Assembly: GCA_050014495.1 (NCBI GenBank)
Contig: JBEKDF010000001.1
Span: forward strand, 32,001-96,000
Source of the DNA: Candidatus Bathyarchaeia archaeon
GTDB lineage: Archaea; Thermoproteota; Bathyarchaeia; TCS64
Direction of reading: 5' to 3'
Length of the DNA stretch: 64,000 nucleotides
Within the stretch, counting starts at the first letter, position 1; each line of letters starts with the position of its first letter. A model generated the notes under the pieces. It did no database searches. It saw only the letters and a list, made by a program, of their open reading frames with translations, and was not told the origin of the DNA. The translations under genes were made by a program, and so were the position numbers. This document shows, piece by piece, positions 1 to 31,611 of the stretch.

Positions 1-35
1 TCAGATTCATATAGATCTCTTTGAAAAAAAGGATT

Positions 36-111
36 TGGTGGACTGGGGGGGATTTGAACCCCCGACTTCCTGATTGCAAGTCAGGCGATCATACCACTGA
101 TCTACCAGCCC
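36..111 (-). tRNA. tRNA-Ala(TGC), intronless, CCA encoded
   Basis: Reverse complement GGGCTGG...CCAGTCC-A-CCA. Acceptor stem has G3:U70, anticodon arm is CCTGA-CTTGCAA-TCAGG, T loop is GGTTCAAATCC. Confidence 0.96.
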
Positions 112-153
112 GCCGAAGATACTCTTTAGAGTCTAGATTTTAACCTATTGGAC

Positions 154-1284
154 TCAGATGAGGTAAACCTCGGGCTTGAGCCCCGTGACCCTAGCGTACC
201 AGGCAGGTACCTCCTCGACGAACTCCGCGACGTTTCGTAGGTGTAAAAGGTTGATAGTGCATCCACCCCAACCCGCCCCTGTGAGGCGTGCACCCAGAAC
301 GTAGCCTGTCTCGTGAGCGTGGTCGACGAGGGCGTCGAGCTCCGGACAGCTCACCTCATAGTCCTCCCTGAGGCTCTTATGTGATTCATACATCAGGGCC
401 CCAACCTTAGCAGGATAGTCTATCTCCATTGCAGCCATCGCGGATAACACCCTCTCGTTTTCGAGGACCACATGCCGGCACCTCTTATACACGACCCCAG
501 ACATCCCACCAGATGCCTTCTCTAAGTCTGCGATTGTTGCGTCCCTAAGCGAAAAAATCTTGGGGTTCACCCTCTTTATAGCCAAAACTCCCGTACTACA
601 CTGCTGAACCCTCTCATTATAGGCAGAGGAATCCAACTTCCTCTTGATCCCGGTATGGATGGCGACGAGGGCATAACCGTCCGGTATCTTGACATTCCTA
701 TGCTTGTTCGTCTTACAGTCTATCAGAAGGGCGTGACCAGGCTTCCCCAGGGAGGCGCAGAACTGGTCCATTATCCCGCTTTGCAGCCCAATGAAGTCGT
801 TCTCAGCAGACTTCCCAATATAGGCAAGCTGAACGGGTGAGACTTTGAGGTCGAAGAGCCCCACTAAAGCCCTAGTAGTTGCGACCTCAAGTGCAGCACT
901 CGAGCTGAGGCCTGCCGCCTGCGGCACATCACCCTTTATGACCAGGTCGACTCCATGCAGGCGGAGCCCCTTTCTTTGCATTGCATCAACGACCCCCATG
1001 ACGTAATTTGCCCAACGCCTCTCCCCACTAAATTCCTGCTTACCGAGGGTGAAGCTGTAGCTCTCCCCGTAGTCCTTCGCGTAGAGCCTGAACTCCTCGT
1101 CGCCCCGCATCCGGCAGGCAACCCAGACCCGGTGGCTAATAGGGGTGGGTAGGACGAATCCCTCGTTGTAGTCTGTGTGTTCACCGATTATGTTGACTCT
1201 GCCAGGAGCGCTCGCAACGGTGATCCCCTCATGAGAATCATACTTCTCCTCGAAGACGCTGAGCATCTCCGCCTCATCCGTCAA
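154..1284 (-). CDS. galK: Galactokinase
   Basis: Motifs APGRVNIIGEHTDYN, GLSSSAA, GIMDQF and GARLTGAGWGG. Probable TTG start at 1284 after SD-like GGGGTGAG; alternative ATG at 1266. Confidence 0.93.
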   Translation of the reverse strand: MTDEAEMLSVFEEKYDSHEGITVASAPGRVNIIGEHTDYNEGFVLPTPISHRVWVACRMRGDEEFRLYAKDYGESYSFTLGKQEFSGERRWANYVMGVVDAMQRKGLRLHGVDLVIKGDVPQAAGLSSSAALEVATTRALVGLFDLKVSPVQLAYIGKSAENDFIGLQSGIMDQFCASLGKPGHALLIDCKTNKHRNVKIPDGYALVAIHTGIKRKLDSSAYNERVQQCSTGVLAIKRVNPKIFSLRDATIADLEKASGGMSGVVYKRCRHVVLENERVLSAMAAMEIDYPAKVGALMYESHKSLREDYEVSCPELDALVDHAHETGYVLGARLTGAGWGGCTINLLHLRNVAEFVEEVPAWYARVTGLKPEVYLI

Positions 1285-1288
1285 ACAC

Positions 1289-2320
1289 TCACCCCGCGTG
1301 GAACCTGAACACAGTCCTCTCGCCGTACTTCTCCCCCGGCCTAAGCACAGTGGTGGGAAAACCTGGCTGGTTGGGTGAATCAGGGTAGTGCTGAGTCTCG
1401 AGACAAAGACCACTATGTTTCGAGTATACTCGCCCCTTCCCATTCATACTTCCGTCCAAGAAGTTCCCCGTGTAGAACTGGACACCGGGCTGCGTCGTTA
1501 GCACAACCATAGCCCGCCCACTCAAAGGGTCCCTCACAGTCGCTGTCCTCCTAAGCTTCCCTGACTCCCCAATTATAACCCAGTTACAGTCATAGCCTCC
1601 GCCAATGACGATCTGCTCGTCACGTGAGTTGATCCGCTCACCAATCTTGTGGGGACCCCTGAAGTCCATTGAAGTTCCAGCTACGCTCCTCAACTCACCA
1701 GTTGGGATCAGCCCCCTTCCAATGGGAGTGAAGTAATCAGCATCCAAAGTCAAGTCGTGCCCAAGGACATCTCCGGTGCACGCCAGGTTGAAGTATGTGT
1801 GGTTTGTGAGGTTGACGACCGTGGGCTTATCGGTCGTTGCATGATAATCAATTATCAGCTCCGATTCCTTGAGGGAGTATTCGACCTCAGCACGAAGCTC
1901 CCCAGGGTACCCCTCCTCCCCATCACCGCTAATGTAGATGAGTCTAAGCGAGTCGCCCCAGACTTCCCCACGCCAAAGGACCTTATCGAAGCCCCTGAAA
2001 CCACCGTGGAGACTGTTCTCCCCGTCGTTCTTAGCTAACTGGTACTCGTGGCCGTCGAGGGTGAATCTAGCCCCACCTATCCTATTCGCGTAGCGACCTA
2101 CGATGCAACCAAAATAAGGGTGAGGACCCAAGTAGCCCTCAAGAGACTCAAAGCCATGAACAATATCCCCCATCACACCCTGGCAGTCGGGAACCTTAAT
2201 CGAGGTGATAGTGGCACCGTAGTTCATCACCTGGACTTCAATCCCACTCGTGGAGAGGGTGTAAAGGTCTACATCACGCCCGTCTGGGAGCATCCCAAAG
2301 GAGTCCCTCAGTATACCCAT
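1289..2320 (-). CDS. galM: Aldose 1-epimerase (galactose mutarotase)
   Basis: Motifs GRYANRI, LHGG, NLTNHTYFNL, QPGVQFYTGN and CLETQHYPD. Confidence 0.94.
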   Translation of the reverse strand: MGILRDSFGMLPDGRDVDLYTLSTSGIEVQVMNYGATITSIKVPDCQGVMGDIVHGFESLEGYLGPHPYFGCIVGRYANRIGGARFTLDGHEYQLAKNDGENSLHGGFRGFDKVLWRGEVWGDSLRLIYISGDGEEGYPGELRAEVEYSLKESELIIDYHATTDKPTVVNLTNHTYFNLACTGDVLGHDLTLDADYFTPIGRGLIPTGELRSVAGTSMDFRGPHKIGERINSRDEQIVIGGGYDCNWVIIGESGKLRRTATVRDPLSGRAMVVLTTQPGVQFYTGNFLDGSMNGKGRVYSKHSGLCLETQHYPDSPNQPGFPTTVLRPGEKYGERTVFRFHAG

Positions 2321-2399
2321 GTGTTTCAATCAACAACCGGCTTTTAAAGAGATTAGGGTCAACGCATCGTTCATAAGTAGTGGAAACATAGGTGTCTGC

Positions 2400-3071
2400 G
2401 TGCGGCTCAAGGCTGTCGTCTTCGACCTCGACGGGACTTTGATCGATTCCAAGATCGACTTCGAGCACATGGCCGGATTGATCAGGGAGGTGCTATCCGC
2501 TGCTGGTGTCCCCGAAGAGCACCTCACGGATAGGAGGAAGATATACCAGATAATACGCGGAGGCGAGAGAGTGCTAGCTGAGATGGGAGTCGACCCAATC
2601 AAACTCCCAGCAATCACCTTGGAGATGGAGAGGATCATGAATCAAGTCGAACTTGAGGGGGCCCATCTCTCGAAGCCTATGAGGAACGCTAGGGAGACGT
2701 TGCGAATCTTGAGGAGCCGTGGACTCGGCATCGGAATAGCAACGAGGGGATGCAGAGAGTATGCTATCGAGAGCATGAGGCTGACCGGCATCCAGAACTA
2801 CGTGGACAAATGCCTCGCTCGAGATGAGGTACTCTACCCGAAGCCGGACCCCCGACACCTACTCGACGTCGTCACCCGCCTTGGAGCCAAAACCGACGAA
2901 GTCTTCTATGTCGGCGACACCTCCACGGATCTGGAGACCGCCAAATCAGCGAACGTCGAATTCATCGGCTACAAGAGGGATGAGGAGTGGGGGAAGAGAC
3001 TCACCGACGCTGGCTGCACGAGGATAGTTGAGGACCTCCTCGAAATAATAGAGATCGCCGACAGCTTCTAG
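2400..3071 (+). CDS. HAD-family hydrolase (phosphoglycolate phosphatase-like)
   Basis: Motifs FDLDGTLID, KPDP and VGDTSTD. GTG start inferred. Confidence 0.85.
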   Translation: MRLKAVVFDLDGTLIDSKIDFEHMAGLIREVLSAAGVPEEHLTDRRKIYQIIRGGERVLAEMGVDPIKLPAITLEMERIMNQVELEGAHLSKPMRNARETLRILRSRGLGIGIATRGCREYAIESMRLTGIQNYVDKCLARDEVLYPKPDPRHLLDVVTRLGAKTDEVFYVGDTSTDLETAKSANVEFIGYKRDEEWGKRLTDAGCTRIVEDLLEIIEIADSF

Positions 3072-4075
3072 CCAAGACCAGCTGTAAAACGCTCAAGAGC
3101 CTCATCATCCGGGATGCTATTGATCCTCTTCTTGAAGTCCTCCGGCATCAGGTTCGACTTCAGACCACTATCCGTCACGATGCAAACTATGTCGCCCTTA
3201 TGCTTCGCCTTCAACGCACCGGCAACGCCAACTGCCCCAGTGGGGGAGGCATATATACCGTTGAGCGCGAGCAGCTCGAGGGCGTGGTAAACGTCGTCAT
3301 CGTCAACTACCCAACCATTCCCCCCAGTTGACCGAATCGCCTTCACGGCTTCGTCCTTCCTCTCAGAGACGGGGACGATGACACCCTCAGCGAGGATACT
3401 TTTAATCGGCTTATACTCCGTGAACTCCCCAGAGATTGGTGCACAAGCAGCGGATTGAACACAGTGTATCTCAGGGATATGCCCGACCTCCCCAGACTTC
3501 TCCATCTCCCTATATCCCCTAGTGATAGCGACCAGGTTCGTCCCGCTCCCAGTGGGCACGAAGATGGCCTCCGCATCAAGTTCATCCTTTAACTCGTATG
3601 AAGTCGTCTGAAACCCTGGTACGGCAGCGGGCTCGAGGGCGACCCCAATGTACCTTACACCAAGCTCCTTCGAGATGCGCCTCGCGTAGATGCGGGCAGT
3701 CTCCCTGTCAGCTACCTCCAATACCTCCGCGCCGTGCCATAAGACTTGAGTCTTCTTCTCCGCGTGGCTGTAGCCAGGCATCACAGCAACGAGCTTTATA
3801 CCAGCCCTGGCGCAGTATGCGGAGGTGCTTACAGCGGCGTTGCCACTCGAGTCGATGACGACCCGCTTCACACCCTCCTCAGCCACCTTGCTGATGAGGT
3901 ATGCAATGCCTCTGTCCTTGAAGCTGGAGGTCGGGTTCATCGCCTCCACCTTAGCCCAGATGCGGGTGCCCCTGAGCCTGATCAGAGGTGTGCTCCCCTC
4001 GCCAAGCGTCTGCCTCCACTCCTCCCTGATAGGCGGAAGCCTCTCAGCGAATCTCCATATTCCTATGGTCGTCAC
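3068..4075 (-). CDS. Threonine synthase-like PLP-dependent enzyme (fold type II)
   Basis: Motifs LGEGSTPL, NPTSSFKDRG (PLP Lys), SSGNAA and PTGSGTNL. Confidence 0.85.
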   Translation of the reverse strand: MTTIGIWRFAERLPPIREEWRQTLGEGSTPLIRLRGTRIWAKVEAMNPTSSFKDRGIAYLISKVAEEGVKRVVIDSSGNAAVSTSAYCARAGIKLVAVMPGYSHAEKKTQVLWHGAEVLEVADRETARIYARRISKELGVRYIGVALEPAAVPGFQTTSYELKDELDAEAIFVPTGSGTNLVAITRGYREMEKSGEVGHIPEIHCVQSAACAPISGEFTEYKPIKSILAEGVIVPVSERKDEAVKAIRSTGGNGWVVDDDDVYHALELLALNGIYASPTGAVGVAGALKAKHKGDIVCIVTDSGLKSNLMPEDFKKRINSIPDDEALERFTAGLG

Positions 4076-4121
4076 TGTCTATCTCGTCTTTGTGGGAAGC
4101 CTGGCTAAAAAGAATGGTGCC

Positions 4122-5627
4122 CTATTCTAGGGTCGCGACGACGAGTGCCGCCAGCTTCTCATCAGCGGAGTTAAGTTTCTTGGCTCTAGCCTCCAAGAAG
4201 TTGATATGTTCCCTCACCTTTTTCCTCTGTTCCTTAATCATCCTCGCCACCTCCTTGGGAGCGGGACCGCCGAGACTGTCGTGGCTGAGGGCGCACTCGA
4301 CTGGGTCAAGCACCTCCTCGAGGTCCTTCTTCTTCACCTTGACCTCTTTACCGATTGTCTCCCTCGAGACCTTGGAGAGGAGCTCGGGAGTGAGCTCAGC
4401 GAAGGACTCCTTGAGATAACCGCCCCTTATGAGCTTCTTCACCACAAGATAGCAACTGCGGAAGTCTATACCAGACTTGAAGGCGAGCTGCGTCGTTACA
4501 TCGGGTGCGGTGGCGAAGTTCCTCCCGCTTAAGCTCCTCATTCTCTCCTTGTTCAACTTCATAGTGGAGACGACGCCGCGTAAGACGGGAATAGTCTTCT
4601 CGACGATATCGACGGCCTCGAAAACGCAGCTCTTCGTCTCCTGAGTGTCCCGGTTATAACCACTAGGGAGAATATCCATGATGGCTATGACCTGGTTGAG
4701 CTTACTGTATACCTTAGGTGCTTTAGCCCTAACCATCTCGAGAGCGTCCGGGTTCCTGAGGTTAGGCTGGGCCGTGCCTCCCGTCGTATATCCGTCATCA
4801 AGCTCTATGAAGCCGAACTCGTAGCTCGACCAGAGTATAAGCTCCTGCACCATACGACGACAGTGGAGCATCAGCAAGCTGAGGTCGCATAGGAGCACTG
4901 CCTCTACCTCGCCCCGGCTGTTCGAGGCGTAGAGGCTGTTCTCCAAAACGCCGTCGAAGCCTAGGAGATCCGCCTCATACTGGCGGTCTATGGTGAGGTG
5001 GGTTCCCGCCATCTCAACGATACCGAGGGGGGAGTCGTTGATCTGCCCGAATGTGAACTCGAGACGCTCGATGTCGTCGAAAAGGTGGCTAACCTTCGCT
5101 GTGAGCCAGTGGGCAAGGGTGATGGGTTGACTGATCCTTAGGTGAGTGTAGCCAGGCATCACCGTCTCCAAGTTTCCATCAGCGAGTTCAAGCAGAGTGT
5201 CGATGAGCTTCAAAAGTTCAGTGATGACGACGTTAACGTGCTCACGCATGTACATGCGGGTGTCGGTGTAGATCTGGTCGTTCCGGGCTACGCCGAGACG
5301 TAGCCAGCCACCGTTCTCGATGCCAACATCCTTGATGACGGTGCTCTCAATGTTGCTGTGGACGTCCTCCAACTCCTTCTGGAGCTTGTACTCACCCTTT
5401 GCGTCGAGGACCCTGATCTTTTCAAGGCTCCCAAGCGTCTTCGCTAGGACGGAGCCCGATATGAGGCCCACCTTGTTGAGCATGAGCATGTGTGCCTCGA
5501 GGGTGTTGAGGTCATGTTTAATGAACTGCTGATCAAGGATGATGTCCTGCCCAGCCATGTACTCCTGGGCGATCTCCGTGGGGGCCCTGCCACCCTCGGA
5601 TAGCCATAGTGGGCCCTCGGGCTTCAT
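4122..5627 (-). CDS. Argininosuccinate lyase-like protein (divergent signature loop)
   Basis: Retains EDVH, RNDQ, MPGYTHL, QP and LPSGYNRD. The signature reads GGTAQPNLRNP instead of GSSxMPxKxNP. Confidence 0.88.
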   Translation of the reverse strand: MKPEGPLWLSEGGRAPTEIAQEYMAGQDIILDQQFIKHDLNTLEAHMLMLNKVGLISGSVLAKTLGSLEKIRVLDAKGEYKLQKELEDVHSNIESTVIKDVGIENGGWLRLGVARNDQIYTDTRMYMREHVNVVITELLKLIDTLLELADGNLETVMPGYTHLRISQPITLAHWLTAKVSHLFDDIERLEFTFGQINDSPLGIVEMAGTHLTIDRQYEADLLGFDGVLENSLYASNSRGEVEAVLLCDLSLLMLHCRRMVQELILWSSYEFGFIELDDGYTTGGTAQPNLRNPDALEMVRAKAPKVYSKLNQVIAIMDILPSGYNRDTQETKSCVFEAVDIVEKTIPVLRGVVSTMKLNKERMRSLSGRNFATAPDVTTQLAFKSGIDFRSCYLVVKKLIRGGYLKESFAELTPELLSKVSRETIGKEVKVKKKDLEEVLDPVECALSHDSLGGPAPKEVARMIKEQRKKVREHINFLEARAKKLNSADEKLAALVVATLE

Positions 5628-5630
5628 CGC

Positions 5631-6818
5631 CTATCCTTCCTTGTACATAGCGAGAACCTGCGGGTTCGCCTTGATGAAGACGGCGTCCTCGAGCCCGTAG
5701 GGAACCTGGACGACGCTGTCCTTATCGTAGGGGATGATGAGGCTGTGCTTAGTGCTCCTCTTCATCATCTTGGTGTTACCCTTGTAGAGCTTGAGAGTCA
5801 CCTCGCCATTGACGTATCCCTGCATCTCCTCCTCGAATGCCTCAAGCCCCTTGATGAGGGGATTGAACCAGAAGGCATCGTATGCGAGCTTAGCCCATTT
5901 CTTGTCGACCTCGTCTTTGAAGATGAGGGTGTCCTTCGTAAGCACGATCCTCTCCAGCTCTTTGTGAGCCTCGACGAGGATCTGGGCAGCGGGGACCTCG
6001 TAGACCCACTTAAACTTGGTCCCGTAGATCCCGTCCTCGATCATATCGACACGCCCTATGCCATGCTTACCCCCAACTTCATTCAGGGTCATTATCAGCT
6101 CAACAGCGTCCATCTTCTCACCGTTGATGTGCGTCGGGATACCATCCTCGAACTTGAGGTTGATGATCTCAGCCTTGTCGGGCGCCTGCTCAAGTGGCAC
6201 CGTCCACTTGAAGCAACCCTCGGGAACCATCTTCTCGATGTCGTCGATGTCACCGTAGTTGATGGCGTTCCCCCAGAGGTTCTCGTCGTAGCTGAATGGC
6301 TGATCCTTACTGATTGGAACCGGGATATTATTCTGGTAGGCGTACGCGGCCTCCTCGTCCCGTGTAGGCCACCAGTCCGTGATGGGACTGACAATCTTCA
6401 GCTCAGGTGCGAAGTGCTTGAGGAAGACCATGAACCTGAAGTAGTCCGCGCCACGCCCCTTACAGCCATGGGCGATGTTGGCAGCCCCCTCCTTCTTCGC
6501 GATCTCAATCGCCTTGATAGCGATTATTGGCCTCGCTATACTCGTCGAGACGGGGTAGTAGTCACAGTAAAGAGCGTTAGCTTTTAGCGCCTTCCAAACG
6601 TACTTCTCGGCGAACTCCTTCTTGCAATCTACTGTGTAATGTTTCACTGCACCCAGCTTTAGGGCCTTATCCTCAAGTGCCTTGAAGTCAGCCTTTTGGC
6701 CGACATCCCCGAGGACAGTTATTACCTCGAGCCCATACTTATCCTGAAGCAGCTTCACGCAGACGGAGGTGTCTAGGCCCCCGCTGTACATTAAAACGAC
6801 TTTCTTGTTGTCAGTCAT
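5631..6818 (-). CDS. Argininosuccinate synthase-like protein (divergent substrate site)
   Basis: PP-loop YSGGLDTS, plus ARP, DENLWG and YEVP. Has HGCKGRGADYFRF in place of HGxTGKGNDQxRF. Confidence 0.88.
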   Translation of the reverse strand: MTDNKKVVLMYSGGLDTSVCVKLLQDKYGLEVITVLGDVGQKADFKALEDKALKLGAVKHYTVDCKKEFAEKYVWKALKANALYCDYYPVSTSIARPIIAIKAIEIAKKEGAANIAHGCKGRGADYFRFMVFLKHFAPELKIVSPITDWWPTRDEEAAYAYQNNIPVPISKDQPFSYDENLWGNAINYGDIDDIEKMVPEGCFKWTVPLEQAPDKAEIINLKFEDGIPTHINGEKMDAVELIMTLNEVGGKHGIGRVDMIEDGIYGTKFKWVYEVPAAQILVEAHKELERIVLTKDTLIFKDEVDKKWAKLAYDAFWFNPLIKGLEAFEEEMQGYVNGEVTLKLYKGNTKMMKRSTKHSLIIPYDKDSVVQVPYGLEDAVFIKANPQVLAMYKEG

Positions 6819-6946
6819 GGTCTTCATCCACTGAATTTGCGACGTCGTGGACTTAACAGGAGACACTATTATATATTTTACGACATATATGGTGCATTTA
6901 TATTTTAAATGTAATATTTAGAACAGATATCTCTTTTTTAGTGGGG

Positions 6947-7666
6947 CTATTGGAGTCCCTTAAGGGCCTCGGGTAAATCGCCAATCCGTTTAATGACAGC
7001 GTCAGAACACTTCAGCTGCTCCTCAGACGCCCCATAGAGATCGATTAAAACGCAGCGTATACCTAACGCGTGGGCTCCGACAATATCGGCCTCATATGTG
7101 TCACCAACCATCAACGCGTTCTCGGGCCTCGACCCAAGCTCCCCAAGAGCCCTCTCGAAAAGGATTGGGGCCGGCTTCATGTAGCCCACCTCCGCTGACA
7201 CAATCAGGCTACCAAAGATCTTCTTGTAGCCCAAGTCATCAAAGACCTTGCGAGCAGTAGGGCCATCCATGAAGTTGGTAACTACGCCGAGTTTGTACAT
7301 CCCCCGGAGCTGACCCAGAAGGGCGGGGGTATCAGGATAGAAACTAGTCTGGCGGGGCCACTCTGCGAGGTACTCATCCCAAGCCATTTTAGCGTAAGTG
7401 CTCCTCTGAGGCTCCCCCACACCCAACTCCTCCAAGGTTAGGACCAGTCGCTTCACGTAGTCGATCTCAGTCCAACCATTGGCCTCGGCCTCAGCAACCT
7501 GACTTCTAGCGATTCTCCGATAGGCCTCGACAAACTTATCACAATCATAATTTAGACCCTGGCCTAAGAGACTGCGCTGGAAAATTTCTAGGGAAGCACC
7601 ACGTTTCATGAGCGCGGGAGCCTGGACTAGGGTGTTCCAGTTGTCGAATAGGATTGTATTGATCAC
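6947..7666 (-). CDS. HAD-family hydrolase
   Basis: Motifs ILFDNWNTL, VVTN, KPAP and VGDTYEADIVGA. Start uncertain. Confidence 0.82.
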   Translation of the reverse strand: MINTILFDNWNTLVQAPALMKRGASLEIFQRSLLGQGLNYDCDKFVEAYRRIARSQVAEAEANGWTEIDYVKRLVLTLEELGVGEPQRSTYAKMAWDEYLAEWPRQTSFYPDTPALLGQLRGMYKLGVVTNFMDGPTARKVFDDLGYKKIFGSLIVSAEVGYMKPAPILFERALGELGSRPENALMVGDTYEADIVGAHALGIRCVLIDLYGASEEQLKCSDAVIKRIGDLPEALKGLQ

Positions 7667-7841
7667 TACGCCGACTCTGTCCGTCTTCCCACCTGACTTG
7701 TTGGATTGTGGAATTCTATCAGGAGTTCGCCTCATACCCCACAAAGAAAAACGGGGAATCATAAGGGCTTACCGGTTCAGAGCGTGCTACTAGTCAAATT
7801 TCAAAAAGCTCAGATGTAACCTACTCTTGGAGACATTAAAA

Positions 7842-8306
7842 ATGGTAACCGAGAAGACACTCAGAAACCGCGTAGTCCGCATAATAGCCGCGACAAGATT
7901 CCCATTCGTCGACCAGGAGAACTGGGGTGAAGGATATGTCACTATAGTCAACGACGAGGTAAAGCGCAGGGGAATTGATACGGATGAAGCTGTGGTCTAC
8001 CCAAGTATAGTAATAACAAAACCCGACGGCAGAATACAGGAACTGGCAGATATAGCAGTAGCAAAGGAAGTATCACCTTCATCCGTGAATAGGTGGAGAC
8101 TAATCTCAGGGAAGGCAGGGTTAGGTAAGAAAGAGAAAAAGTTCTTTCTCTATGTGCCACCTGGGAGCGAGAAGAAGGCACTCCAACTCCTCGAAAAAAA
8201 CAAAATATCCTATGCAGGTCTGAGAGTATACAAGATCATCGACGGAATACTCTCCGTGACACCCATCAAAACCCCCGACGACGACTACGACCACCGCCGA
8301 ACATAG
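7842..8306 (+). CDS. Hypothetical protein (possible degenerate PD-(D/E)XK-like fold)
   Basis: Clean ORF with protein-like composition, co-oriented with the downstream genes. Confidence 0.7.
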   Translation: MVTEKTLRNRVVRIIAATRFPFVDQENWGEGYVTIVNDEVKRRGIDTDEAVVYPSIVITKPDGRIQELADIAVAKEVSPSSVNRWRLISGKAGLGKKEKKFFLYVPPGSEKKALQLLEKNKISYAGLRVYKIIDGILSVTPIKTPDDDYDHRRT

Positions 8307-8364
8307 AATGCAGTACCATATACAACAAAATAGGAATTATATCCCCGCATGCGAACATTCAACT

Positions 8365-9567
8365 ATGTTCAAGCTACTAACCGGTGGAGAAGTCTACGCA
8401 CCCGAGAAGCTCGGCAAGGTCGATATTCTAGTCACAAACGATAGGATAGTCGCTGTAGAGGAGAACCTTGAACTCCCAGGCAAATACGAGTGCGAAGTCG
8501 TTGACGCCACCGACAAGATCATTTATCCAGGCTTCGTCGACACACACATCCACTTCACTGGAGCTGACGATGGGCAGGGTCCCGTCGGCCATACCTATGA
8601 CGTCTCTTGGCAGGACATCGTGGAGAGCGGAGTGACAACCGCTGTTGGCACCCTAGGGGGCGAGATGTGGGTCAGAACCCTCGAGCAGCTCTACTGGAAG
8701 GCCGTCGAGCTGGATAAGATGGGGCTCACCACATACATCTACACGGGTGGCTTCCACATCCCACCTATCACGATAACGGGCAGCGTGAGGAGAGACATCA
8801 TCCTACTCGAGAAGGTCAGGGGACTGAAGACCGCTATCTCAGACGCGACCACCAGTCACCACACATGGAGAGAGCTCGCGGAGCTAGTCAGCGAGGTCAA
8901 CATCGGAGCCGAGACCGTAAAGAAGACAGCTGTGACTCACGTTCATGTTGGAAGGCGACCCCAGAGGATGGATATGCTCTTCGAACTCATCGAGAACACC
9001 GGCCTCGACCCTAAGGGAATAGTACCGACACACGTCAACCGAATAACGCCAGACGTAATAGCCCAGGGCATTGATTGGATAAAGAGAGGTGGTGTAGTCG
9101 ACCTTACCACACAGATGCGCAGGGAGGAGGGAACCCTAACCGGCGTCAAAACCGAGTACGCGGTGAAGAGAATGTTAGACGCGGGTTGCCCCATAGAAGG
9201 CATCACGATCAGCAGCGACGCGAACTGCCCAATGGCGATAAGGGATAGCAGCGGCAAACAGATAGGACTCTATGTAGCTCTCGTCGACTTCAACAGGAGA
9301 GAGATTAGAGACATTGTCCGAAACAGCGTCGCACCTTTTGAGGAGGCCTTAAAGATGGTGACAACAAATCCGGCCCGCGTTCTAGGTATAGATGACAGAA
9401 AAGGCAGAATCAAGCCAGGATACGATGCTGACATCGTGATCGCGAACAAGCCAGAGGACCTTAAAATCGATAAGGTCTACTCCAAGGGGAATATGCTGGT
9501 AGATGGTGGAAAAGCGCTGTTCCAAGGACACTACTGGATGGATCCCTATTACGAGATGTACCAGTAA
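8365..9567 (+). CDS. Isoaspartyl dipeptidase-like amidohydrolase
   Basis: Motifs PGFVDTHIH, GVTT, GLKTAISD, HVHVG, PTHVNR, SSD, TTNPARVLG and GYDADIV. Confidence 0.85.
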   Translation: MFKLLTGGEVYAPEKLGKVDILVTNDRIVAVEENLELPGKYECEVVDATDKIIYPGFVDTHIHFTGADDGQGPVGHTYDVSWQDIVESGVTTAVGTLGGEMWVRTLEQLYWKAVELDKMGLTTYIYTGGFHIPPITITGSVRRDIILLEKVRGLKTAISDATTSHHTWRELAELVSEVNIGAETVKKTAVTHVHVGRRPQRMDMLFELIENTGLDPKGIVPTHVNRITPDVIAQGIDWIKRGGVVDLTTQMRREEGTLTGVKTEYAVKRMLDAGCPIEGITISSDANCPMAIRDSSGKQIGLYVALVDFNRREIRDIVRNSVAPFEEALKMVTTNPARVLGIDDRKGRIKPGYDADIVIANKPEDLKIDKVYSKGNMLVDGGKALFQGHYWMDPYYEMYQ

Positions 9568-9613
9568 GCCCGACTAAGAAAACCGTTTTAGCCCGTCCAA
9601 CCACCAATACTCC

Positions 9614-10690
9614 ATGTCACAAAGCAACAGCAAAGAGAACATCAAAGAACTAGCCAACATATACAATAAACTCCATCCACAAATACACAGCGACTTCGGA
9701 GAGGAGATGCCTAAATACTGGGGAAACCGGTGGAAAGCGAACACCAGCATCGGCAAGCTCCGCACAGTCTTCGTCCACCGACCCGGTAAGGAGTTTCTAA
9801 GCGTCGGGAAGAAGACCCCATGGCCACCCCACGAGGATAGCCTTGCAGCTTGGAGGATGACCTTCAAACCGGACCTCAACGAGTTGATCAAGCATCACGA
9901 GAACCTACTAAAAGCCTACAAGGACGAGGGCATCCGCGTAGTCGTCAGAAAGCCAGATCCCAATGACCCACCCTACCAAGTGAAGAGCATCTATACCGAT
10001 GATGTCTGTCACCCCGCCGTCTACGGCCAGATCATTCTACGAATGTACGACTGGATCCGAAAAGGCGAGGAGGTACCAACCTATCAAACACTCGCCGAGG
10101 CTGGATGTCCAGTCGTCGGCATGATCGTGGGCGACGGCATGGTCGAGGGAGGATCATGCGGCTGGCTTGACGAGAAACACCTATTCATAGAGGTGCATTT
10201 CCCCAGGGGTAATACGTCAGACCCCATCATCGCAAAGGCGAATGAATTCGGTCAGGAGCAATACGCTAGAATAGTCAAACTACAGGATCCAGAAGTCGAC
10301 ATCAAGATGGACCCAGGATACGGCACAAGCAAGGGAACAATCGACTACGCCATGATTGACCGTCATACAAGCGTAGGAGATCCAATCTGGTTCGACCCAC
10401 ACCTCGTAGCGTGGATGAAGAATGAGATGAACTGGAAATTCATCGTACCACCTGACGAACTAGTATACACCGACACACATGGCGCTAAAATCGGACCAAA
10501 CACTGGCATCGTCCTAGAACCCATGAAACTAATGGTCCCAGTCGGCAATCCTAAGAACACTAAGTGGCTCGAATCCATCGGTGTCGAGGTTGTGGAAGTA
10601 GAGTGCAGTAGCCTAGTCAGGCCGAGAAACAGTGGCAGTATCCACTGCACAAGTGGTAGCCTCGAAAGGGACCCCGAGCCCTGCGATTAA
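9614..10690 (+). CDS. Amidinotransferase / arginine deiminase (pentein) superfamily protein
   Basis: Motifs SIGKLRTVFVHRPGKE, VEGG and C-terminal GSIHCTS (catalytic Cys). Confidence 0.82.
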   Translation: MSQSNSKENIKELANIYNKLHPQIHSDFGEEMPKYWGNRWKANTSIGKLRTVFVHRPGKEFLSVGKKTPWPPHEDSLAAWRMTFKPDLNELIKHHENLLKAYKDEGIRVVVRKPDPNDPPYQVKSIYTDDVCHPAVYGQIILRMYDWIRKGEEVPTYQTLAEAGCPVVGMIVGDGMVEGGSCGWLDEKHLFIEVHFPRGNTSDPIIAKANEFGQEQYARIVKLQDPEVDIKMDPGYGTSKGTIDYAMIDRHTSVGDPIWFDPHLVAWMKNEMNWKFIVPPDELVYTDTHGAKIGPNTGIVLEPMKLMVPVGNPKNTKWLESIGVEVVEVECSSLVRPRNSGSIHCTSGSLERDPEPCD

Positions 10691-10808
10691 TCACAATCAA
10701 CACTTAGTATCCGGGTTCACCACAAAAAATCGTCAAATATGCTTCTAATTGATGATCAATAGTTCAACTATCAATCATCATCCAAAAAAGGCTAGATTTA
10801 GGAATAAT

Positions 10809-10943
10809 CTAAAGGTCCTCGTCCTTACCCTGCCTCAGGCTCAGAATCAAGCCCCTGAGGACCAACCAGGTGAAATATGCTCCAGGTATCATACTGACAA
10901 TAGCTGCGATCACAACGAGTGAGTTCGAGCCCTGCTCAGCCAA
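10809..10943 (-). CDS. Putative 44-aa single-pass membrane protein
   Basis: TTG-started ORF MAEQGSNSLVVIAAIVSMIPGAYFTWLVLRGLILSLRQGKDEDL in otherwise empty space, below the ORF-track cutoff. Confidence 0.45.
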   Translation of the reverse strand: MAEQGSNSLVVIAAIVSMIPGAYFTWLVLRGLILSLRQGKDEDL

Positions 10944-11052
10944 CGCTTATCTCATGGAGCCGGGTGCCAGTTGCTAAAGAAGATTATGATTCACCGAGCT
11001 CAGTTTAGTGTCCTTAGACTCTCTGAGATGCGCATTATTAATTGATTGTAAT

Positions 11053-11337
11053 TCAAAGGTCATTATTTCTGCGTTTAGGAAACGAGTCTCTAACCTCTTT
11101 CAACCGCACCTCTGAGAGGTAGTACTTCCCACTAACCTCAACAACTATCCCTGATTGACCAAGTCGTCTACTCATCATATCCTTGAAAACTGGCGGAAGA
11201 CCAAGTTCCTCGATGGTCATCGCTCTTTCGCTACTAGTAGCGCCCTTAAGCCTAAATTTCTCAACAATATCCTGAGACTCTTTCAAACGATCCCTAAACT
11301 GCGATTGTCTACCTCTAAACATGCTATTCACTATCAT
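11053..11337 (-). CDS. Hypothetical small basic protein (possibly winged-helix-like)
   Basis: Helical region followed by a beta-hairpin-like VVEVSGKYYL. Confidence 0.65.
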   Translation of the reverse strand: MIVNSMFRGRQSQFRDRLKESQDIVEKFRLKGATSSERAMTIEELGLPPVFKDMMSRRLGQSGIVVEVSGKYYLSEVRLKEVRDSFPKRRNNDL

Positions 11338-30663: not shown

Positions 30664-31611
30664 TTAAGCTGGGACTATATGTGTCCCCGTCTTGCCATTG
30701 AGTGCATCCACGGCCTTCTCGAGGCTCGTTATAATGGCACGCTCGCCACCTCTATCGACGAAACCGAGAGCAGCCTCCACCTTAGGACCCATGCTTCCCG
30801 CCCCAAACTGCCCTTCTTGGAGACGCTTCTTGGCCTCAGGAACAGTCATCTTATGGATTGGGGCTTGTGAAGGTTTACCATAGTCCATCATTGCATACTC
30901 TACGTCGGTTAGTATTAGGAGGATGTCGGAGCCTACCTCCTCCGCAAGCTTCGCACCAGCCCGGTCTTTGTCAATAACTGCATCTACACCCTCAAGGTCA
31001 CCTTGTTTATTTCTGAAAACGGGTATGCCGCCGCCCCCAGAAGCTATGACTACCATTCCAGCCTCGACCATGATGCGTATAGCCTTAGCCTCGACTATGC
31101 CTAGGGGGAATGGGGAGGGTACAACGCGCCTCCATGTCTTGTCACCAGTTGGTCGGACTTTCTTCACCACATAGCCCCGTTCTGCTGAGAGTCTCTTGGC
31201 CATCTCCTCTGTGTAGAAGGGGCCTACAGGTTTTGTTGGGTCCTTGAAGTCAGGGTCTTCGGGGCTTACTAGAACCTGCGTGACGATGGTGGCAACCTGC
31301 TTTCCATCGACGTCTAATATATTGTTTAGATGCTGCTGCATCATGTAACCTATCTGGCCCTGTGTCATAGCACCGAGCACGACGAGGGGCTGAGGTGGTA
31401 CCTGGTCTGTAGCAGCCTCCTGCTGGATCGCAAGGTTACCTACCTGGGGACCGTTGCCATGGGTGATCACGAGTTGGAATCCATGTCTCACGAGCTGGGC
31501 TATCTGTTTGGAGGCGATCTCGACGTTCTTCATCTGCTCTTCGAAGGTCCCCTTCTCATCGGGTTGCTTGATGGCGTTCCCGCCTAGGGCGACCAGGACA
31601 CGCTTGGCCAT
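30664..31611 (-). CDS. arcC: Carbamate kinase
   Basis: Motifs ALGGNA, THGNGPQVG, PTKPVGP, RRVVPSP, GGGGIP, VIDKD and GSMGPK. Confidence 0.95.
   Translation of the reverse strand: MAKRVLVALGGNAIKQPDEKGTFEEQMKNVEIASKQIAQLVRHGFQLVITHGNGPQVGNLAIQQEAATDQVPPQPLVVLGAMTQGQIGYMMQQHLNNILDVDGKQVATIVTQVLVSPEDPDFKDPTKPVGPFYTEEMAKRLSAERGYVVKKVRPTGDKTWRRVVPSPFPLGIVEAKAIRIMVEAGMVVIASGGGGIPVFRNKQGDLEGVDAVIDKDRAGAKLAEEVGSDILLILTDVEYAMMDYGKPSQAPIHKMTVPEAKKRLQEGQFGAGSMGPKVEAALGFVDRGGERAIITSLEKAVDALNGKTGTHIVPA

Follow-up and report, generated by a model that had tools for sequence, protein, structure and literature searches.

Analysis of a 64,000-nt stretch of Candidatus Bathyarchaeia archaeon DNA (GCA_050014495.1, contig JBEKDF010000001.1, positions 32,001–96,000; the whole stretch is called the window below) revealed a conserved mobile two-gene cassette, argG*/argH*, encoding an altered ArgG-like and an altered ArgH-like protein (ArgG* and ArgH*) with co-rewired donor sites. 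We infer the substrates, products and chemistry of the pair from the observed sequence changes, their conservation, gene context, the insertion of the cassette and the loss of the canonical argG. The pair probably makes arginine from citrulline and very probably takes its nitrogen from a donor other than aspartate, use of which we consider very unlikely. As donor we favour, with some reserve, free O-phospho-L-serine (OPS), which would leave pyruvate and phosphate as by-products. Two synthetic links between citrulline and arginine are named in the pertinent section of one paper, the aspartate-using ArgG/ArgH and the arginine synthetase ArcE (PMC11032458). It seems somewhat probable that the pair constitutes a third route, in which ArgG/ArgH-fold enzymes co-rewired to OPS release pyruvate and phosphate, and in which Patescibacteria and Bathyarchaeia exchange the cassette, with displacement of the canonical argG.

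The gene argG* (5631–6818; all features of this locus are given on the minus strand) encodes a predicted ATP-dependent ligase of the argininosuccinate-synthase fold with 395 aa and an altered amine-donor site; an ATG further upstream, at 6827, is implied by a 398-aa member of its protein cluster. The gene argH* (4122–5627, 501 aa) encodes a protein of the argininosuccinate-lyase fold without the superfamily catalytic Ser and the signature Lys. A previous inspection of the letters alone (the sequence-only reading) had described these two and a ThrC-like gene for a pyridoxal phosphate (PLP) enzyme (3068–4075, 335 aa) as three co-oriented genes with gaps of 3 and 46 bp and with altered motifs in the ArgG- and ArgH-like proteins, and both the open reading frame (ORF) coordinates and the motif positions bore this out. 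In ArgG*, the donor loop HGCKGRGADYFRF (6432–6470) contains T120K and N124A (human T119 and N123) and keeps D125 and R128. The motif NLWGNAIN (6258–6281) contains E187N (human E191) and R184N, and EDGIYGTKFK (6009–6038) keeps E261 and contains R263G (human R272) together with the clade-invariant Y265. For human ASS1, the active-site passages of PMC13289927 assign aspartate contacts to T119, N123 and D124 and citrulline contacts to Y87, N123, R127, S189, E191, E270 and Y282, and describe these sites as highly substitution-sensitive.

Conservation was assessed in 121 ArgG-family proteins, the query and the best 120 of 7134 matches. The altered signature was common to 43 of them, and the remaining 78 served as the canonical comparison set. 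T120K, N124A, E187N, R263G, Y265 and W271 occurred in 43/43 clade proteins and in 0/78 others; at the positions of human T119 and N123 the canonical proteins have T/S and N throughout (78/78), the clade K and A. The ATP PP-loop SGGxDTS is retained in the clade (S12 and G14 in 42/42; D16 and T17 in 43/43), as are the citrulline contacts Y88, S176, E261 and Y273 (43/43). The window protein has Y88, R128, E261 and Y273, with N124 and E187 replaced, and an Ala at the position of human S189 that is shared by 11/78 canonical ArgGs. The position of D125 (human D124) is D in 22/43 members and G in about half of the clade, that of human R127 is R in the window protein and Q in 21/43 members, and R127Q and D124G belong to a derived HGNKG subclade. 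The donor-site differences highlighted by the sequence-only reading thus stood, whereas two others it had listed are common among canonical proteins: K-to-R in GKGND (13/78) and N-to-D in ENR (65/78).

A midpoint-rooted FastTree phylogeny of 114 ArgG rows (with canonical database rows thinned to one in three) placed the ArgG* clade on a single branch with Shimodaira–Hasegawa (SH)-like support of 100, apart from and outside the ArgG of the window genome's own genus, with the window protein as sister to the bacterial members. Named clade members are Patescibacteria; three close protein clusters (79–98% identical), for which gene context is missing, group with the window ArgG*. Among 401 Bathyarchaeia genomes sampled, only the window's genome contained a clade member, and the five next-best matches were canonical. 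The AlphaFold model of ArgG* reached a predicted local distance difference test (pLDDT) score of 90, and Foldseek matched it to solved ArgG structures with template modelling (TM) scores of 0.82–0.84.

ArgH* is altered at the same chemical handle. A profile search (10 sequences against 1.84 billion representatives) gave 9 clade members and 141 canonical-type rows among the best 150, and the altered signature was common to 19/160 ArgH-family rows. In the signature loop GGTAQPNLRNP (4749–4781), duck S283, S284, M286 and K289 correspond to G284, T285, Q287 and L290, while N292 is kept; the clade therefore does not match the argininosuccinate lyase signature GSSxMPxKxN. The loop Ser is Gly in 18/19 clade rows (Ser in 140/141 others), the Lys is Leu in 18/19 (Lys in 140/141) and the Met is Gln in 18/19 (Met in 136/141). 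Within GVARNDQ (5274–5294), where R115 and N116 are kept, S114 is replaced by Ala (13/14 clade rows; Ser in 140/140 canonical rows). S114A and the new clade-specific K178, E205 and Y233 are fixed changes beyond those listed by the sequence-only reading, and E205, in GIVEMAG (5004–5024), is a candidate new acid/base. We take S283 to be the catalytic base and S114 a beta-carboxylate ligand in delta2-crystallin numbering. R115, N116, R238, Q329 and K332, presumably the residues that bind the arginine half, are retained in every clade row covering these positions, as largely is the His162–Glu296 relay with Thr161 (H in 15/15, E in 19/19 and T in 14/15). In argininosuccinate lyase, K289 positions the fumarate moiety and H162–E296 act as a charge relay, as stated in the mechanistic part of PMC2779060. 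In a FastTree phylogeny of 71 of 162 ArgH rows, the clade again formed a single branch (SH-like support 100) with the window protein as sister to the bacterial members. Both trees are midpoint-rooted and show the grouping but not the direction of transfer. Two sequences stand out: P0125 carries Trp where Gly is conserved, as though TGA=Gly codons had been translated as Trp, and P0126 (named Gottesmanbacteria), a divergent member of the clade, shows GATAAPGVKN and an altered YTHL motif.

The pair recurs in bacteria. After duplicate removal we obtained 10 bacterial loci (L033, L077, L113, L114, L115, L117/118, L224, L225, L226 and L310; G, L, C and X numbers denote genomes, loci, contigs and sequencing runs), all Patescibacteria where the organism is named. 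Pattern scans of GTDB genomes and metagenome contigs gave 2 and 7 clade loci among the 80 matches listed from each, the rest being mostly canonical argG; because canonical argG filled the matches listed, the locus counts are lower bounds. In 10/10 loci ArgG* is followed, no more than three genes on, by an ArgH* with the GGTAQPNL loop. The arginyl-tRNA synthetase gene argS is near the pair in 7/10 loci, argF is adjacent in 4/10, and either is present in 9/10. Recurrence in other genomes, suggested as a check by the sequence-only reading, was thus observed for the pair and its substitutions, though not for the three-gene cluster with the ThrC-like gene. Searches of G177, G334, G370, G389 and G042 found no other ArgG or ArgH, leaving the pair as sole representative; in G041 a second ArgG, broken by a gap, precedes upp. 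The clade occurred in 5/401 genomes of G041's class, in 2/223 of another order and in 1/16 of G042's order. The ornithine carbamoyltransferases (OTCs) of L077 and L115 score above the ArgF cut-off and below that for putrescine carbamoyltransferase.

Several further features were observed at these loci. Arginyl-tRNA synthetases with an N-terminal B3/4 domain fusion are encoded at L115:4741–7440, L225:3336–6179 and L226:13462–16215, and B3/4 is a separate gene in L118; we assume that this domain possibly proofreads arginine analogues. A cyclase-family (PF04199) hydrolase gene lies between argH* and argS at L115:4115–4744 and L226:12848–13465, in two related genomes, and is absent in L225; it might aid hydrolysis of the enamine proposed below.

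In the window's genome, the pair forms an insertion of 2.8 kb (approximately 4117–6953) that the same-genus genome G016 does not have. In a blastn comparison, window positions 35–4116 and 6954–7665 aligned with G016 and nothing in between did. The G016 block is syntenic around the site and its flanks meet there, so that the HAD hydrolase gene (6947–7762 in the window) directly precedes the ThrC-like gene with no argG*/argH*; the same HAD to ThrC-like order was found in G027 and G029. The HAD gene, which ancestrally lies upstream of the ThrC-like gene, forms the other edge of the insertion; the ThrC-like gene is likewise an old neighbour and stands outside the module. The three-gene operon of the sequence-only reading was therefore abandoned: synteny rules out the ThrC-like gene as a third pathway member, its co-orientation exists because the pair inserted at that place, and the unit of the cassette is two genes, argG* and argH*. 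Contamination or misassembly is an unlikely origin of the cassette, which lies mid-contig and whose junctions are bridged by contigs of other runs (one contig of run X6 spans 4175–7721, and contigs of run X9 bridge both junctions), with a GC content at third codon positions of 0.74–0.75 vs 0.61–0.73 in ten neighbour genes. The source genome has a completeness of 96% and a contamination of 7.5%.

The cassette has replaced the canonical argG in this genome. Among 17 same-genus genomes, 16 had an ArgG match; all 13 loci fetched carry HGCTGKGNDQ, and in 12 of these 13 (the locus that supplied the query among them) a gene for a 150-aa membrane protein lies next to argG. In the window's genome, the native site consists of 258 bp between folC and this membrane gene, free of N and of any argG remnant, and argG* is the sole ArgG-family gene found. 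An assembly gap was rejected as explanation for the missing canonical argG, as the native locus is closed on an unbroken 170-kb contig. Of the second canonical pair that the sequence-only reading had suggested looking for, argG was not found in the genome and argH survives alone, at C42:7914–9422 of G000 (the window's genome). OTC-like genes are present, and a carbamate kinase gene (window 30664–31611) scores over its family cut-off. A further lyase-family gene with an intact signature was seen beside a lipoate-ligase-like gene (C9:66480–67985).

In the proposed route, ArgG* would adenylate the ureido oxygen of citrulline with ATP, as ArgG does, and the amine of OPS would displace AMP, yielding an arginino-phosphoserine adduct with an N-omega linkage. 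The new Lys120 would bind the OPS phosphate; Lys for T119 and Ala for N123 are as expected for a bulkier anionic donor. The second step is the least certain. ArgH* would bind the arginine half and be unable to form the C3 carbanion of the fumarate elimination, and since the OPS adduct has no carboxylate activating C3, the canonical ArgH base would be useless. The C-alpha proton might instead be removed by the kept His162–Glu297 pair or by the new Lys178/Glu205, phosphate would be expelled, and the resulting N-amidino-dehydroalanine would hydrolyze to arginine and pyruvate. OPS could be supplied by a SerK-type kinase (minimal and adjacent in some bacteria, full-length elsewhere in the window's genome) or by SerA/SerC.

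A recurring SerK-type kinase partner points to OPS rather than cysteate. At 4/10 bacterial loci a minimal kinase gene (~130 aa) is adjacent or fused to the pair: it stands in front of argG* in L033, separates argG* from argH* in L113 and L114, and forms a fusion with the ArgH* N-terminus in L077. In the PDB it is closest to the free serine kinases SerK and SbnI (E 3e-18); it aligns to both ends of SerK and does not contain the ~100-aa inserted middle domain. It keeps Glu30 (mutated as E30A/E30Q in SerK entries 5x0e/5x0j), DGHHR and a C-terminal KTT[KR]H, which we take to be catalytic and serine-binding residues of SerK. In this family, which counts 1232 matches, H14 and E15 are present in 117/117 sequences, and HE, DGHHR and KTxxH are near-invariant. 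An Atlas search identified it only as 'ParB N-terminal domain', and an AlphaFold model from four sequences reached a pLDDT of 40. SerK phosphorylates free serine specifically, according to the relevant passages of PMC5120207.

Other full-length matches to the minimal kinase in three samples (401, 16 and 241 genomes) formed 8 loci, of which 4 precede TrpB2, 3 have a CysK/CBS-family enzyme gene no more than two genes away and 1 has neither; a Trp/Tyr-class or cysteinyl tRNA synthetase adjoins 5/8. TrpB2 enzymes use OPS, as noted in PMC11917138 where it cites Busch 2014. Kinase, OPS-using enzyme and tRNA synthetase are thus a repeated layout, which kinase, argG*, argH* and argS would fit. In the Patescibacteria group, L265–L267 and L318–L321 combine the minimal kinase with TrpB2 and a tRNA synthetase, or with CysK/CBS and cysS, and are candidate salvage routes to Trp and Cys. 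Full-length SerK-like genes were found twice in the window's genome (one directly behind cysK), in an aminotransferase–serA–serK operon in G177, and in G370. An aminotransferase–serA–serK-like operon in which the kinase motif reads DGMNR was also seen at L238–L254, L256 and L279, in most of 18 genomes (401 sampled). DUF1015 (SerBK) was rejected as OPS source, being present in 0/5 genomes. GapMind 2026 covers DUF1015 serine kinases; those of its passages that mention argininosuccinate concern another topic, and the word is absent from the passages of PMC12704722 consulted.

Several observations weigh against the OPS route. The predicted minimal kinase scores ~53–73 bits vs the SerK cut-off of 380 (NF053625) and lacks the inserted domain. 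The pair has no kinase gene beside it in the window and at 6/10 bacterial loci, and a search that excluded G872 and the L117 organism found none in G334 and G389, both incomplete metagenome-assembled genomes. Genomes with the pair contained SerK in 3/5 cases vs 19/396 of the others (Fisher p 0.001); this co-occurrence was discarded as support because it is confounded by kinship, and in G370's order a SerK-like gene is background (13/21 genomes). On the side of citrulline supply, the canonical argH is kept and carB was not found in the window's genome. Finally, the clade-wide E191N and R272G (43/43), like the R127Q and D124G of about half its members, alter citrulline contacts, and R127Q is inactive in human ASS1 in the data consulted from PMC13289927.

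The last point keeps a non-citrulline acceptor open, and we weighed the reading in which the pair takes an acceptor other than citrulline or yields a product other than arginine, such as agmatine from N-carbamoylputrescine or a stable modified arginine as end product. In its favor one may also count the missing canonical base of ArgH*, which might be a different kind of enzyme, and a gene for the knotted carbamoyltransferase YgeW, of unassigned substrate, directly after argF in the argG*/argH* operon of L077 (4572–5741). We nevertheless regard it as improbable: argS or argF stands beside 9/10 loci, the OTCs of L077 and L115 score as ArgF, the arginine-side residues of ArgH* are kept, and the canonical argG was lost where the pair arrived. 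argF, argS and this loss favor citrulline as acceptor and arginine as product. The sequence-only reading had proposed a ligase and lyase pair with either a non-aspartate donor or a non-citrulline acceptor; the former is supported and the latter disfavored.

It is also unlikely that the order of events is reversed, with ArgG* coupling free L-serine to citrulline, the SerK-type kinase phosphorylating the adduct and ArgH* eliminating the phosphate. The kinase of L077 is fused to ArgH* and not to ArgG*, and absence of the SerK inserted domain could open the active site of the minimal form, as this order would have it. However, TrpB2 and CysK-family enzymes, with which the same minimal family works, depend on free OPS; the kinase is absent beside 6/10 bacterial loci and the window pair; and T120K suggests an anionic donor.

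Little credence can be given to a divergent but ordinary ArgG/ArgH pair, taking in aspartate and releasing fumarate with compensating changes (e.g., Thr285 as base). Both window proteins clear the NCBIfam cut-offs (TIGR00032 413.8 vs 268.2 for ArgG*; TIGR00838 383.6 vs 279.5 for ArgH*), the ArgG* fold matches, and the pair is the sole ArgG/ArgH in several genomes, beside argF/argS. Yet near-invariant donor-contacting residues are replaced in both enzymes, such donor-site changes cripple human ASS1 in the portion of PMC13289927 that reports them, and the kinase adjacency and fusion would be left unexplained.

Very improbable is the version of the sequence-only reading in which the ThrC-like enzyme makes or recycles the donor, e.g., cysteate from OPS and sulfite, and ArgH* releases sulfoacrylate. 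The gene is co-oriented at a gap of 46 bp, an anion-binding Lys at 120 would suit a sulfonate too, and XcbC yields sulfoacrylate (PMC9457059, in the part describing this enzyme). Against this, the ThrC-like gene is older than the insertion and occurs without the pair (orthologues were found in six other Bathyarchaeia genomes among 201, five of the six with a canonical-type argG match), and none was recognised next to the pair among the ORFs listed for the 10 bacterial loci. Among the matches listed (25 of 34 families), cysteate synthase did not appear and the protein was below every family cut-off, including those for threonine synthase (TIGR00260 100 vs 167; PRK05638 186 vs 421); another gene of the genome, on contig C15, passes TIGR00260 (197 vs 167). 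Moreover, ArgH* no longer has the C3 base on which sulfoacrylate release should depend. The ThrC-like gene, flanked by HAD phosphatases, falls into a separate Bathyarchaeia group of 60 proteins at 58–87% identity (next matches ≤40%), and the names of its close homologues put the window's genome in Bathyarchaeia.

Decay or inactivity, which the loss of catalytic residues might suggest and which the sequence-only reading would have read from substitutions not shared by homologues, is practically discounted by intact ORFs, by the same substitutions being kept across proteins 48–59% identical from two domains of life, and by purifying selection in 6/6 bacterial gene pairs (nonsynonymous divergence, dN, 0.12–0.35 vs synonymous divergence, dS, 1.9 to saturated). 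The candidate undescribed pathway of the sequence-only reading is supported in that donor contacts are changed in both enzymes, conserved and co-travelling.

Compared with ArgG (EC 6.3.4.5; TIGR00032; Thermus thermophilus 1j1z, human 2nz2), ArgG* shares the fold, the PP-loop, most but not all citrulline contacts and the pairing with ArgH, at an identity of ~38–40% to solved enzymes and 44–51% to ArgG of relatives; it differs by the fixed T119K, N123A, E191N and R272G and the new invariant Y265 and W271. Compared with ArgH/delta2-crystallin (EC 4.3.2.1; TIGR00838), ArgH* keeps T161, H162, N291 and E296 and the arginine-side R115, N116, R238, Q328 and K331, and differs by S283G, K289L, M286Q and S114A and the new K178, E205, Y233, D184 and H181. 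XcbC of bacterial coenzyme M synthesis is an ArgH-like enzyme that eliminates phosphate, as described in the section of PMC9457059 on it, and offers a precedent of different geometry for the proposed ArgH* step. Unlike ArgH*, it acts on phosphosulfolactate with the phosphate on C2 and has no ArgG partner; ArgH* scores 203 bits vs the NF052535 cut-off of 575, and coenzyme M genes were not seen here. ArcE, the one aspartate-independent citrulline–arginine link described in the pertinent section of PMC11032458, is in contrast an unrelated, ADP-forming and mainly catabolic protein that works in one step with free ammonia. SerK/SbnI with OPS-dependent TrpB2 and CysK provide a homologous kinase and the same layout of kinase, OPS user and tRNA synthetase, but here OPS would give nitrogen and not the carbon skeleton, and no PLP would be involved. 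Repurposed ArgG folds are also known from the nitrile synthetase ArtA (PDB 9leh/9lei; ArgG* is 28–29% identical) and from NCBIfam argG_rel (NF038212; 200 bits vs a cut-off of 425). A full-text literature search, covering few subscription journals, found no paper describing such an ArgG/ArgH-type pair.

If the OPS route exists, it would give the ArgG/ArgH (PurA/PurB, PurC/PurB) kind of amino-transfer cassette its first member not run on aspartate, and two classic enzyme families a new reaction type. ArgH* would be an aspartase/fumarase-superfamily enzyme acting without its catalytic serine. New core metabolism would be concealed by routine argG/argH annotations, as both proteins pass the curated cut-offs, and the large minimal ParB-like protein family would gain a function. 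Such a route might suit fermenters unable to recycle fumarate.

An AT-rich stretch with TATA-like words (6867–6946), read from the sequence, lies 5' of argG* within the insertion and is possibly a putative promoter of the cassette's own; in the promoter/terminator scan, signals were at chance level. An Rfam scan gave a tRNA at 39–111 as sole match. A second block missing in G016 (window 7827–11337) showed no relation to the cassette in the comparisons made. It contains an isoaspartyl-dipeptidase-like gene (8308–9567; 329.5 vs a cut-off of 331.25) and an amidinotransferase/arginine-deiminase-like gene with weak matches only (9614–10690), whose products might break down beta-Asp-Arg or arginine and provide citrulline.

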